NCBI GenBank assembly: GCA_900128565.1
Contig: LT635922.1
Span: forward strand, 1 to 51,380
Direction: 5' to 3'
Length of the DNA stretch: 51,380 nucleotides
Origin: Stramenopiles sp. TOSAG23-6
Taxonomy: Eukaryota
A program made the translations under genes and the position numbers. This document shows positions 31,176-35,255 of the stretch, piece after piece. The notes under the pieces were generated by a model. The model was not told the DNA's origin. It was given only the letters and a program-made list of their open reading frames with translations, and did not search any database. Each line of letters begins with the position of its first letter. Positions within the stretch are counted from its first letter, which is position 1.

Positions 31176-34100
31176 TTACATCATACCGCCCATCCCTCCC
31201 ATTCTATTGTATACATAAATATATTAATGATAAACAGTTAAGTCAAAATGTTTCACAATGTATTTTGTTAAAATTGATGCGTATATGTAATGTCGGACTG
31301 AGACAGGTACGTCAAATAACAATTAAGATTGTCATTGCGTGTTAATATTTCCGTGATTTCACTCTGGGCATGTTATATGACTGAATCGCGCCTGCTCACG
31401 CAATAATGCTGTGAACGGCTCTTCATTAAAATTGAAGGATCCGTAACGCCATTGGTATGCCATAAAAAAATATTTCATAATATACGAAGACATCAAGTAA
31501 CACGTAATGAATTCGTGTATCACATGGATAGCTGTATTAATGTCTGCTCATCTCGAAGTTATCTTCAAGTACGGAAAGAACTACCAATCCCATCGGTTCA
31601 TCTAGATCCACTCCAAAGAAGAGGATTGATCATAGCAGAAACAAATACCCAACAAAAAAGGAGACAAAACACGAAAAAAAACAAAAAACAATATCATATT
31701 GATAAGAGTAACTTACCCTCCCATGCCACCCATACCGCCGGCGCCCATTGCTGGGGCAGGTGGAGCTTCATCCTCGAGGTCAACAACAGCACATTCAGTG
31801 GTGGCCATTAGACTAGCAACGGAAGCAGCATCAACGAGAGCAGTTCTTACGACTTTAGTTGGATCAATCACACCAGCATCAATCATGTTAATATATTTAC
31901 CATTCTGAGCATCGAATCCGAGATATGCGTCATCACTCTCAAGCAATTTGCCAATAACAACAGCACCCTCAAAACCAGCATTGTTAGCAATAGCTTTACA
32001 CGGAACACGTACTGCTCTTTGAATGAGTTCAATACCTTGCTACTTTTGAGAAAATATAGTAAATATAGTTCAAATTTAGTGAAATGAAACTTGAATACGA
32101 GGTATTGATAAGAATAAAAAAGTTATATTCAGAACGTTGTGAAATTGATTTTTGAACACAGGGTTCAGCCTTTCGCTCAAACTCCTTCAGTTGTGTAGCA
32201 TAAGTCATTTTGTCCTCATCATATAGAAAAAAAAAAAAAAAAAATATTGATAAGCTCAGAACGTTGTGAAATTGATTTTTGAACACAGGGTTCAGCCTTT
32301 CGCTCAAACTCCTTCAGTTGTGTAGCATAAGTCATTTTGTCCTCATCACTGATCAATCAAATATATAGAATGATTATTTAGAATATTTCACTTACCTTTT
32401 GATCGTTATTCTCCGTAGTTTCTATCAAACTATCGAGTGCTTTGGAAGCATGAAGAAGAGCGGAACCACCACCAGAAACAATGCCTTCTTCGACAGCTGC
32501 ACGAGTGGCATTGAGAGCATCGGTGATACGATCCTTCTTCTCATTGACCTCTACTTCACTGGCACCACCAACTTTGATGACAGCGACACCACCAGAGAGT
32601 TTAGCAAGACGTTCTTGAAGCTTTTCTTTTTCATATTCACTCTTAGTGTTATTAATCATCTGTTTGATTACTTCGACGCGCTCCTCAATTTGTTTAACGT
32701 TGCCCAAACCATCAAGAACAACAGTGTCGTCCTTCGATATGGAAATCTATTATATGAAAATATAAGAAAAATGTACATTAAGTTAGTAAATACATAATAA
32801 TTATATACGTCCTGTATATAGATAGTAAAAATATCTGTCCCGCCGCTTTCCCAGTATTTTGACACTACACCTTTTATGATACCCCCGGTTAGAAGGTACA
32901 TAATAAGGCAGTCAAGTACCATGATACGACGGTGTAGATCCAATGGATTTGCGGTCCAAGAGGAACTAATCTAGCAGAGGGTTAGGACCGAAGCTTCATT
33001 GATTTGATGCCGTGGTTGAGTTAGAATCTCTGCATAAAGATAATTAAAAAACATTTTGGATGGAATGTATATATAAGAAATGCATCACTATATAGCTCGT
33101 AGAAAAACTACATAAATTACATTCTAACTGACGACTATAGTAAAGATTGGACTTTCACCTTTCTTTACACATAAACATCATATTTTTAACACCAGATAGG
33201 AACAAAATGACACACAAGGTATTTTACAGATACCAGTAAGTCCATAGTGCTCTTGGCAGGTGTACGGATATGAAATGACTATGAAAACTATACGATAATG
33301 ATGATATTTCATTAGTAACTTACTTTCTTACAGGTACCGAGAACACTAGCATCACAGTTCTCTAATTTTGTACCCAAATCATCACTGACTACCTGACCAC
33401 CCGTAAGAACGGCAAGATCTTGAAGATTAGCTTTACGATTATCACCAAATCCAGGAGCTTTAATAGCGACGACTTTGATACCAGCACGGAGACGATTCAT
33501 AATAAGAGTTGCGAGTGCCTCAGTTTCAACATCTTCAGCAACAATAACAAGAGGTCGTCCTTCTTTATGAGTTTGTTCAAGGATTGGAACAAGAGACTAT
33601 TATGTGGTGAAATACATATCGAAGGTTTTTGTTGTAAGTATTATGAATATGTTAAGTATATCTAAAAAAAAAGTAAAAAAAAATACAAAACTTATCAGAT
33701 TCATGCACATAATCACAATGATTGGCTGCAAAACCAACATCAGTCCCGAAAGATGGTATAATGTATTCAGCATGTCATCATTCAAGTTATTGTACTATAA
33801 AAAACACGGGAAAAAATTGAGAAACACGGGATATATATTAAATATCATCATCTCAGGCACTTGAATGTCGTTTCATAAAAGCGGGTCTTAATCGCCATCA
33901 AATACACGGACCAAGTAATATCTCAACATCGATGATTCAATAAAATAAAAGTGAAATAGTGTGTGTGTTGTTCTATGACATTTGGCTCATAAAAATACGA
34001 TAATGATTCGTCAAAACTCCGGCTGTTAACCCAGATTTTCAGAAACACAGGTGTTCAAATTAAAATCACAGCTGTAGTACATATTTCTTCACACCCAAAG

Positions 34101-35255
34101 ATTTCAAAACACACATATCGTAAACACGAAATATATTAAAAATAACCTCATAAACTCGGGGTTCTAATCCGAGAGTAACACTTTTTCACCAGTGGGTTTC
34201 TTAAGCCCGTGAGAGTGGTGCATGGTTCTGAGATCTCATAGGTTTTTCAAATATATCATGAATGTTGACGTGTATGCATGGGGAGGAAAGTAGGGAATGT
34301 TTACTTTTTAGTCTGCTCATCTCGAAGTTATCTTCAAATACGGAAAGAACTACCAATCCCATCGGTTCATCTAGATCCACTCCAAAGAAGAGGATTGATC
34401 ATAGCAGAAAGTAATTTATCACGATACTAGCCCAAACATTTGGAATACAACAAAACGTAAAAAAAAACAATGGAAATGATACTATAAACATTAGAAAGAA
34501 TTACTTACCTGCATTTGAGAAATTTTCGCTTCATGGAAGAGAATTCTAGGGTTCTCAAATTCAACCTTCTGAGTCTTTTGGTCGTTGATAAAGTAAGGGG
34601 AAATATAACCACGGTCAAACTTCATACCTTCAACAACATCGAGTTCATCATACATGGTTTTACCATCCTGGACAGTAATGACACCTTCTCTTCCTACTTT
34701 TTCCATGGCTTCTGCAATGAGGTTACCAATTTCGGTTTCTCCGTTTGCAGAAATAGTTGCAACTTGAGCAACTTTTTTCTTGTCATCAATTTCAGTGGAA
34801 TTCTTTTCAATTACTTCAACAAGAGTTTTGACAGCTTTGTTCATACCACGGCGAAGATCCATTGGGTTGAGGCCGGCGGCTACAGCGCGGCAACCTTCAT
34901 TGAAGACGGCGCGGGCAAGAACGGTAGAAGTAGTCGTACCGTCACCAGCGACATCGTTGGTTTTGTTAGCAACTTGTCTAACAAGCTGCGCACCCATGTT
35001 TTCAAACTTGTCTTTAAGGACAACAGATTTGGCGACAGTGACGCCATCCTTAGAAATTTTAGGAGCTCCAAAAGGTTGATCCATAATGACATTTCTGCCC
35101 TTTGGACCGAGAGTGACCTGGACGGCGTCCGCAAGCTGGTCAACACCAGAAAGCATACGAGCTCTTGCATCAATACCGAAGCGAATGTCCTTTGCAGTGG
35201 ACATACCCCGACTAAGCGGAGCAAGTCGCGTGGATGCCGTTCTAACAGTGTTCAT
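31176..35255 (-). CDS. HSP60: Mitochondrial chaperonin Hsp60; 5 exons (35255-34509, 33596-33324, 32746-32396, 32039-31717, 31203-31176), 573 aa
   Basis: [67 protein letters not shown] tail. All four introns are GTAAGT...TAG and the exons join in frame (747+273+351+323+28 nt). Confidence 0.97.
31288..31462 (-). ncRNA. Intronic box H/ACA snoRNA, snR42-like (LSU rRNA pseudouridine equivalent to yeast 2975)
   Basis: H box AAATCA (31359-31354) and ACA (31293-31291). The 3' hairpin has a CGGA/TCCG base. Pocket strands AAC and ACCTGTCTCA flank UA in the conserved LSU sequence UGAGACAGGU-UA-GUU, 15 nt from ACA. 5' end approximate. Confidence 0.7.
31542..31641 (-). ncRNA. Intronic box C/D-like snoRNA (copy in intron 4)
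   Basis: TCTGC/GCAGA terminal stem, ATGATCA box C variant, ATGA box D variant; 99/100 identical to 34311-34410. Confidence 0.65.
32129..32222 (-). ncRNA. Intronic box C/D snoRNA (tandem copy), LSU rRNA guide
   Basis: ATGATGA...CTGA (D')...CTGA (D). D' guide ACTTATGCTACAC is antisense to LSU GUGUAG(C/A)AUAAGU; D guide TTTCACAA is antisense to nearby UUGUGAAA. Confidence 0.85.
32256..32349 (-). ncRNA. Intronic box C/D snoRNA (tandem copy), LSU rRNA guide
   Basis: GTGATGA...CTGA...CTGA; 93 nt identical to 32129-32221. Confidence 0.85.
32833..33034 (-). ncRNA. Intronic ~200-nt H/ACA-like RNA, target unassigned
   Basis: 5' hairpin closed by GCAGAG/CTCTGC, then H box AGATTA (32972-32967); long 3' domain (CTACACC/GGTGTAG, GGTAC/GTACC, CCGC/GCGG); ACA at 32838-32836. 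GC-enriched island in an AT-rich intron. Confidence 0.55.
33689..33788 (-). ncRNA. Intronic box C/D snoRNA, snR39B/SNORD2-like (LSU Gm805 yeast numbering)
   Basis: AACTT/AAGTT stem, ATGATGA, D' CTGA preceded by ACCATCTTTCGGG (antisense to LSU CCCGAAAGAUGGU; the +5 rule selects the G), terminal CTGA. Confidence 0.88.
33844..33936 (-). ncRNA. Intronic box C/D snoRNA, U18/SNORD18-like (LSU Am649 yeast numbering)
   Basis: TCATC/GATGA stem, ATGTTGA box C variant, CTTGGTCCGTGT guide antisense to LSU ACACGGACCAAG before D' TTGA, terminal CTGA. Confidence 0.85.
34144..34244 (-). ncRNA. Intronic box C/D snoRNA, snR40/U32-like (SSU Gm1271 yeast numbering)
   Basis: AACC/GGTT stem with ATGA at both ends (K-turn geometry). 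Guide CCATGCACCAC is antisense to SSU GUGGUGCAUGG; with D' CTCA the +5 base is the G preceding UGCAUGG. Boxes are degenerate. Confidence 0.7.
34311..34410 (-). ncRNA. Intronic box C/D-like snoRNA (copy in intron 1)
   Basis: Same element as 31542-31641 with one substitution. Confidence 0.65.

Follow-up and report, generated by a model that had tools for sequence, protein, structure and literature searches.

The 51,380-nucleotide stretch of DNA analyzed here (hereafter the window; contig LT635922.1 of assembly GCA_900128565.1, Stramenopiles sp. TOSAG23-6) very probably harbors a genuine cluster of small nucleolar RNAs (snoRNAs) of the box C/D type within the first intron of a predicted chaperonin gene, with at least two of its units, A and B, being functional. 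A preliminary description of this DNA had placed four C/D RNAs, three of them with recognizable ribosomal RNA (rRNA) guides, at 33689..34410, which corresponds to the segment running from the 3' end of unit A to 2 nt beyond the 5' end of unit E. Our analysis recovered four C/D units in this segment, three of which (A, B, and C) carry rRNA guides, while the fourth (E) lacks a target in the conserved rRNA that was searched. Judged by guide and register, units A, B, and C are the likely counterparts of snR39B/SNORD2/snoR39BY, U18, and snR40/AtsnoR21, respectively. By Rfam score, none of the three qualifies as a family member.

Organization of the intron 1 snoRNA cluster

All elements of the cluster are encoded on the minus strand, which is the strand of the host gene. 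The borders of intron 1 (Table 1) were assigned because a metatranscriptome RNA contig (run X15) joins position 33596 to 34509. The 5' splice site lies 100 nt ahead of the array, whose last unit stops 92 nt short of the 3' splice site; between these limits, units and spacers alternate regularly (97, 67, 101, 67, approximately 70-92, 48-70, 90, 58, and 100 nt).

Units A, B, C, and E share a kink-turn layout (stem, 3 nt, GA ... GA, stem) with zero offset, the C-box dinucleotide of unit B being GU in place of GA. The terminal stem comprises 6 bp in unit A (one of them G-U), 6 bp in unit B, 5 bp in unit E, and 4 bp in unit C, in which three further pairs follow a mismatch (7 of 8 positions). Only unit A carries fully canonical boxes (C RUGAUGA and D CUGA; AUGAUGA and CUGA in this unit). 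Counting mismatches in the C plus the D box, unit B has one (AUGUUGA/CUGA), unit E has 1+1 (AUGAUCA/AUGA), and unit C has 3+1 (AUGAGAU/AUGA). The non-canonical boxes pointed out beforehand, including ATGTTGA and TTGA in unit B, CTCA in unit C, and ATGA in both C and E, are all present (Table 1). It had also been claimed that the guides sit directly before D'-like boxes, and each of the three strings is indeed found 1-2 nt before CTGA, TTGA, or CTCA. The D' guides of units A, B, and C have the form of a C/D guide (10-21 nt next to D or D', with the target opposite position 5), and their duplexes with conserved rRNA span 14, 12, and 12 bp, respectively.

Guides and predicted targets of units A, B, and C

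Guide complementarity was assessed on 87 eukaryotic loci centered on the small subunit (SSU) rRNA, fetched from metagenomes by motif and mostly ending before the large subunit (LSU) rRNA, and on an extra sample of nine eukaryotic LSU fragments that occur as contaminants of prokaryote assemblies; LSU coverage extends from position 1 to approximately 2,750 of 3,401. In agreement with the complementarity to conserved rRNA that had been proposed, the three guides pair with LSU or SSU sequence in these independent rDNA loci. The assignment of their targets to the equivalents of yeast 25S Gm805, 25S Am649, and 18S Gm1271 likewise holds, as each register is the only one that fits the neighboring yeast modifications, and the spacing agrees with that in Rfam consensuses.

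First, the guide string of unit A, ACCATCTTTCGGG (33757-33745, minus strand), is followed by A and then by CTGA. Starting at its position 2, this guide forms 14 bp with GACCC[G]AAAGAUGGUGAAC; the nucleotide that faces guide position 5 is bracketed. The target G of ACCC[G]AAAG corresponds to yeast Gm805 (guide snR39b), Arabidopsis Gm814, and human Gm1522 in the site lists of these organisms (PMC5199042, PMC11542601, PMC8583080), and taking the bracketed G as 805 is the only choice that places Gm805, Am807, and Am817 of the yeast list on G, A, and A (PMC5199042). Like SNORD96 (RF00055) and snR39 (RF01197), unit A has ACCAUCUUUCGGG, one nucleotide, and CUGA, as in both consensuses, and its guide and box spacing also agree with the Rfam TtnuCD19 alignment. 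Its alignment to SNORD96 spans the full length and scores 39.6 bits (E 1e-5, from a search of 1.6 kb), under the 43-bit cut-off; against snR39 the unit scores 21.6 bits, under the 40-bit cut-off. Its canonical C and D boxes, terminal stem, and intronic location are further features in common with snR39B/SNORD2/snoR39BY. According to PMC8583080, the Arabidopsis counterpart also guides 5.8S Gm79 through its 3' guide; in contrast, for the 3' guide of unit A, UGUGCAUGAAU, no 5.8S or other conserved target was found in the rRNA searched.

Second, unit B carries the guide string CTTGGTCCGTGT (33915-33904, minus strand), followed by AT and then by TTGA. Starting at position 3, the guide forms 12 bp with GAAAC[A]CGGACCAAGG, the bracketed nucleotide again being the one that faces guide position 5. 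The target A of GAAAC[A]CGG corresponds to yeast Am649 (guide U18), Arabidopsis Am661, and Dictyostelium Am844 in the published site lists (PMC5199042, PMC11542601, PMC8817022). This register is also unique, since no numbering other than 649 for the bracketed A lets the listed yeast m1A645, Am649, and Cm650 coincide with A, A, and C (PMC5199042). Unit B resembles SNORD18 (RF00093) in the order UGGUCCGUGU, two nucleotides, and D' box, as in the consensus UGGUCCGUGUUUCUGA, and it resembles U18 in being intron-encoded, U18 being described as intronic in yeast, human, and Plasmodium (PMC2656528). It differs from U18 in its C box (AUGUUGA), its D' box (UUGA), its low family score (17.2 bits, under the cut-off of 41), and a further element of 14 nt that precedes the D box and for which no target was found in the rRNA searched. 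The only listed strain difference inside a predicted unit lies at 33867 (G>A on the plus strand, C>U in the RNA), which is position 11 of the D-box guide of unit B; the change would keep the pairing with G as a wobble.

Finally, the guide string of unit C, CCATGCACCAC (34225-34215, minus strand), is followed by T and then by CTCA, and the guide pairs with GGUG[G]UGCAUGG of the 18S rRNA over 12 bp that begin at position 1 and include one G-U. The same guide, CCAUGCACCACU, stands directly before D' (consensus box CUGA) in Drosophila snoMe18S-Gm1358 (RF00533); with 12 bits against this model (cut-off 50; E 10), unit C does not count as a family match. Following the CCG rule, we take ac4C1280 to lie on the middle C of CCG. 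Placed in this way, the listed yeast Um1269, Gm1271, and ac4C1280 fit U, G, and that C only if the bracketed G is 1271 (PMC5199042). Yeast snR40 is reported to direct Gm1271 with its D' guide (PMC4344503), and in unit C the Gm1271 guide also sits before the D' box. The site itself is conserved, being listed as human Gm1328, Arabidopsis Gm1275, and Dictyostelium Gm1266 (PMC11542601, PMC8817022, PMC8583080). Compared with yeast snR40, human U32A, AtsnoR21, and RF00533, unit C has AUGAGAU, CUCA, and AUGA in place of RUGAUGA, CUGA, and CUGA, and no counterpart of the second guide of snR40 (25S Um898) was found in it.

The comparison with family models that had been suggested as a check thus stands in part: guide and spacing are as in the SNORD96, SNORD18, and snoMe18S-Gm1358 consensuses, but the scores fall under the gathering cut-offs.

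The duplicated unit E

Unit E is 99% identical over 100 nt (one mismatch) to 31542-31641 in intron 4, where the copy is referred to as E', and the flanks of the two copies are unrelated. Searched alone against Rfam, unit E gave no match. An 11-mer of this unit, UCUAGAUGAAC, is antisense to LSU rRNA in three of the nine fragments, approximately 410 nt after the Gm805 equivalent. This match was rejected as chance because it is not followed by a box and lies where neither yeast nor plants have a listed site; the idea that it represents the U24 target proved wrong. A 12-mer match to one SSU variable region (locus L077) was also considered to be chance.

Enrichment of rRNA-antisense sequences in intron 1

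To estimate how often such complementarity arises in the window, every 11-mer on both strands was scanned, with its reverse complement being required in at least 8 of the 87 loci. This yielded 67 antisense runs in 102,760 positions. The minus strand of intron 1 (912 nt) holds four of them, compared with 0.59 expected (Poisson P = 0.003; P = 0.023 with the run at the third target dropped). In addition, NUGA or CUNA follows within 0-2 nt in three of the four runs in intron 1 vs 3 of 63 elsewhere (Fisher P = 0.0016). Both tests bear out the earlier statement that chance is an unlikely source of the guides. Antisense runs at 14114-14171 and 23634-23752 were rejected as they lie in coding-like sequence.

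The LSU targets of units A and B are present in 22 of the 87 SSU-centered loci, and in five and six of the nine LSU fragments. It should be noted that the count for the third target (87 of 87 loci) is circular because the motif used to fetch the loci contains the unit C target. Counted from conserved 5' motifs, the targets lie at positions 786-842 for unit A (7 loci) and 636-685 for unit B (10 loci); the target of unit C lies at 1246-1296 in 21 of 31 loci, and at exactly 1271 in two of them. The LSU target sites of units A and B are 150-157 nt apart, vs 156 in yeast. The LSU motif scan of viral contigs gave no match. At least nine short contigs filed under bacterial or archaeal assemblies (loci L088-L158) are eukaryotic LSU rRNA (1,036-2,184 bits to RF02543), and represent eukaryotic contamination of prokaryote genome records.

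Fully canonical C/D-plus-stem candidates number one in the window (unit A), compared with 0.25 per shuffle, whereas relaxed box-plus-stem patterns barely exceed the shuffles (44 vs 28.1, and 57 vs 44.9). Therefore, unit C rests on its guide and unit E on its duplication. At 38589-38652 and 10261-10335, a canonical C box is combined with AUGA as the D box; both candidates were rejected since they read like coding sequence.

Table 1. Features of the snoRNA cluster, its host gene, and related elements in the window.
Feature	Position	Strand	Length	Description
Unit A	33689..33788	-	100 nt	Canonical box C/D snoRNA, snR39B/SNORD2/snoR39BY-like (predicted); stem AACUUG/UAAGUU; C AUGAUGA 33781-33775; guide 33758-33745; D' CUGA 33743-33740; C'-like GUGAUUA; D CUGA 33698-33695
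Unit B	33847..33936	-	90 nt	U18/SNORD18-like box C/D snoRNA (predicted); stem AUCAUC/GAUGAU (6 Watson-Crick pairs); C AUGUUGA 33929-33923; guide 33915-33904; D' UUGA 33901-33898; canonical D CUGA 33856-33853
Unit C	34144..34244	-	101 nt	snR40/AtsnoR21/snoMe18S-Gm1358-like guide (predicted), deviant C/D frame; stem AACC/GGUU; C AUGAGAU 34239-34233; guide 34225-34214; D' CUCA 34213-34210; D AUGA 34151-34148
Unit E	34312..34408	-	97 nt	C/D-like; stem UCUGC/GCAGA; C AUGAUCA 34402-34396; D AUGA 34320-34317
Unit E'	31543..31639	-		Second copy of E (sequence copy), in intron 4
Candidate D	34007..34076	-		U18-like remnant or retargeted paralogue, between C and B
Region F	33789..33846	-		Spacer with two CCCGUGUUU motifs (one before CUCA), between B and A
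Tandem units	32110..32363	-	127 nt each	Two tandem units in intron 3, (A/G)UGAUGA ... CUGA ... CUGA each, canonical C/D
Exon 1	34509..35255	-		Exon 1 of host gene; Pfam Cpn60_TCP1, E 3.4e-36
Intron 1	33597..34508	-	912 nt	Host of the cluster; GT..AG on the minus strand (CT..AC on the plus strand)
Intron 2	32747-33323	-	577 nt	X15 contig joins 32746 to 33324
Intron 3	32040-32395	-		Joint in X6 contig
Intron 4	31204-31716	-		Assigned because the last exon was placed near 31174-31203 by loose-end consensus

RNA contigs and strain variation

In run X11, a non-polyA library, a 305-nt contig (33746-34050) comprises part of unit A, all of region F and unit B, and part of candidate D, and further contigs of this run cover the snoRNA-bearing parts of introns 3 and 4. 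Segment 34114-34515 and intron 2 have no RNA-contig cover in X11, which counts neither way.

Six of the seven strain differences in intron 1 lie outside units A, B, C, and E, with none listed in units C and E and two located in region F, one of these within CUCA. Of the six differences listed for an independent metagenome contig (X3), five have a stated location, all away from the unusual boxes of units B and C, and the sixth is given without one; no difference is listed at these boxes.

Weighing the functional interpretation

Several observations weigh against a working cluster. Guide pairing was judged on rDNA loci other than the organism's own. The RNA evidence consists of assembled metatranscriptome contigs, from which neither RNA ends nor RNA levels can be read, and an unspliced precursor or DNA carry-over could account for the X11 contig. 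The distribution of strain variants is not significant (one of seven inside 42.5% of the intron, binomial P of approximately 0.13, an estimate). The Rfam scan of the whole window gave no match at gathering score, which is also what had been anticipated in the suggestion that automated annotation could miss the cluster. The second (D-box) guides of all units have no conserved target in SSU, 5.8S, or LSU positions 1 to approximately 2,750, and unit E has none in SSU, 5.8S, or the first 2,750 LSU positions; for the second guides and for D and E, the search returned single-locus or G-U-rich matches of 9-12 bp that were not above reversed-sequence controls (116/839 windows). Folding energies were no better than those of shuffles (z -1.08 to +0.88). 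Energies at shuffle level are usual for the box C/D class. In unit B, the C box AUGUUGA places a U where the second sheared pair sits. Unit C has three mismatches in the C box, one in D, and one in D'. The SnoBIRD rule, as it is given in PMC12309372, assigns a snoRNA with at least two C-box and at least one D-box mismatches to the pseudogenes, and unit C would therefore be called a pseudogene. This unit may be a decaying copy.

Taking these points into account, an alternative that we consider unlikely, albeit worth serious attention, is that only units A and B work, and that C, E, D, and F are pseudogenes that arose by tandem and by dispersed duplication, have decaying boxes, and form no stable snoRNP. 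The box mismatches of C (3+1, plus CUCA at D') and E (1+1) fit this possibility, as do the SnoBIRD rule as applied to unit C (PMC12309372), the missing terminal stem of candidate D, the two of seven strain differences held by region F, the lack of a conserved target for E and D, and the near-shuffle counts of the relaxed patterns. On the other hand, the 12-nt guide of unit C is letter-perfect and the same as the Drosophila family consensus, its stem is intact, and neither C nor E has a listed strain difference. Also speaking against decay are the 99% identity of E in two introns with unrelated flanks, and an RNA-library depth over E/E' that exceeds the neighboring exon bins at bin level only (run X15; depth of 8.53 in bin 31568-31701, which holds E'), although such depth could likewise stem from precursor RNA or DNA. 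Furthermore, the SnoBIRD thresholds were trained without stramenopiles.

For E and E', it is improbable, in our view, that they are another kind of element, be it a dispersed repeat of short length or some other small RNA with chance UGA motifs by its terminal stem. Such an origin would account for the absence of a guide target and of an Rfam match within the searches described above, and for the lack of a clear D'/C' pair; moreover, a predicted internal helix of 8-9 bp would occupy the 5' guide region, and box-plus-stem features alone are not above chance. Nevertheless, the limits of the copies coincide with the stem-box ends, both copies lie on the host strand with the geometry of A-C, E stands in register in the regularly spaced array (spacers of 58-67 nt), and the 51-kb window contains no further copies.

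Lastly, that the guides are chance matches in an AT-rich intron devoid of snoRNAs is hardly credible: rRNA-antisense 11-mers do occur approximately once per 1,500 nt in the window, coding sequence included, but the enrichment and box adjacency tests, the three of three registers falling on known conserved methylated nucleotides (yeast has approximately 55 such sites in approximately 5,200 nt of 18S plus 25S, an estimate from the table in PMC5199042), the SNORD96 alignment (E 1e-5), and the six Watson-Crick pairs of the unit B stem all argue against it.

Beyond a working cluster as such, a joint reading that we put forward tentatively, as possible rather than probable, is that this lineage tolerates relaxed kink-turns, that E/E' is lineage-specific, and that processing is plant-like. 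Working snoRNPs would then form on frames of the type 5'-stem-UAUGA(U/G)NN ... AUGA-stem-3' (C and E), the C box of unit B would be tolerated with U at the second sheared position, and the targets of E/E' would lie outside the conserved rRNA core, the copies being kept by selection or gene conversion. If true, at least four units per intron would require plant-like endonucleolytic processing of the spliced intron in a heterotrophic stramenopile.

Proposed mechanism

If the intron 1 cluster is a set of snoRNAs with at least A and B working, as we favor, its units would be co-transcribed as part of the host pre-mRNA. Once the intron has been spliced out and debranched, they would presumably be cut apart and trimmed to protein-protected ends, the core proteins Snu13, Nop56, Nop58, and fibrillarin probably sitting at the C/D kink-turn and protecting it, and would accumulate as discrete RNAs. 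In the nucleolus, each guide would pair with the pre-rRNA, and fibrillarin would methylate the ribose opposite the fifth guide position upstream of D'. The predicted methylation targets are thus the LSU G matching yeast 25S Gm805 for unit A, the LSU A matching Am649 and possibly also the next C for unit B, and the SSU G matching 18S Gm1271 for unit C. Unit E would be a C/D-like RNA kept in two copies, with a target that is not among the conserved rRNA searched.

Other elements of the array and of introns 2 to 4

Candidate D fills a gap in the otherwise regular spacing of the array. Its elements follow in the order GUGAUUU, ...CACCUGUGUUU, CUGA, and then UUGA or AUGA. Against SNORD18 it scores 14.1 bits (E 9.6), with GUGUUUCUGAAAA in common with the consensus and a different guide; its terminal stem comprises 2 bp, too few for the stem test, and no conserved target was found for it in SSU, 5.8S, or the LSU positions covered. 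Region F reaches 17.6 bits against SNORD18 across 33763-33856 and contains the antisense 12-mer UUUUCCCGUGUU, after which there is no box. We read candidate D and region F as leftovers of a tandem duplication of a U18-like unit. Introns 1 and 2 have a 13-nt string, ATCATTATCGTAT, in common, which in intron 1 lies in the region immediately 3' of candidate D.

The two tandem units of intron 3 form a repeat with 87% identity over the unit, in which a core of approximately 92 nt is identical and the flanks have diverged, a pattern that is also seen for E and E'. They had no significant Rfam match (SNORD95, 15.8 bits, E 4.5) and no conserved rRNA target was found for either guide in the rRNA searched. 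More generally, nothing significant was found in introns 2-4 against Rfam, and intron 2 contains no small RNA recognizable by Rfam E-value search.

Host gene and genomic setting

The translation of the exons and the Pfam match identify the host as a probable mitochondrial-type Cpn60/HSP60 chaperonin gene. Its start codon is an ATG at 35255-35253 on the minus strand, exon 1 opens with an N-terminal presequence-like stretch, and an RNA contig of run X6 covers 34834-35274. The best named relatives of the neighboring prolyl-tRNA synthetase are heterotrophic stramenopiles (bicosoecids, MAST, and labyrinthulids; 59-77% identity), and, by protein similarity, the organism appears to sit among this group. 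For a subset of relatives, the synthetase is 75-77% identical. DNA of the window was found again in seawater metagenomes. At 35372-35387, approximately 120 nt upstream of the HSP60 start codon, AAAACCCTAACCCTAG consists of two telomere-repeat-like units and falls in the promoter region common to the divergent HSP60 and prolyl-tRNA synthetase genes. We assume a resemblance of AAAACCCTAACCCTAG to the telo-box of plant translation-related promoters.

Significance and comparison with known systems

Among the papers listed by a literature search, none combined snoRNA and stramenopile terms. The cluster yields three testable predictions of rRNA 2'-O-methylation, together with their guides, for an uncultured marine protist lineage represented in this analysis by data of the metagenome and metatranscriptome type. 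It also suggests that multi-snoRNA introns, usually described for plants, occur in this lineage too, and that three of the four introns of one housekeeping chaperonin gene hold such units. The U18-like copies, whether intact, deviant, or decayed, would stand side by side as a natural series on the box variation that the C/D snoRNP tolerates. In other respects this is ordinary biology in a lineage without snoRNA annotation, and our understanding of snoRNA function is unchanged; we regard as mildly unusual the deviant boxes, the orphan unit present in two introns, and the chaperonin host with units in three introns.

In vertebrates, U14 is encoded within hsc70, and in rice a snoRNA cluster lies in an hsp70 intron. 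Intronic snoRNA gene clusters in rice were reportedly described by Liang et al. in 2002. All three sites targeted by units A, B, and C are listed as methylated in human and Arabidopsis, and two of them in Dictyostelium, with dedicated snoRNAs (PMC11542601, PMC8817022, PMC8583080). As summarized in PMC2656528, several snoRNAs per intron occur in plants (rice), and two in the Plasmodium ribosomal protein S27a intron, whereas vertebrates and yeast have one snoRNA per intron. The cluster described here resembles those of rice and Plasmodium in having multiple units in one intron of a protein-coding gene. It differs from them in comprising four to five units in one intron, with introns 3 and 4 of the gene housing more units, in its probable mitochondrial-type chaperonin host, and in its lineage, which appears to be that of a heterotrophic stramenopile-like protist.

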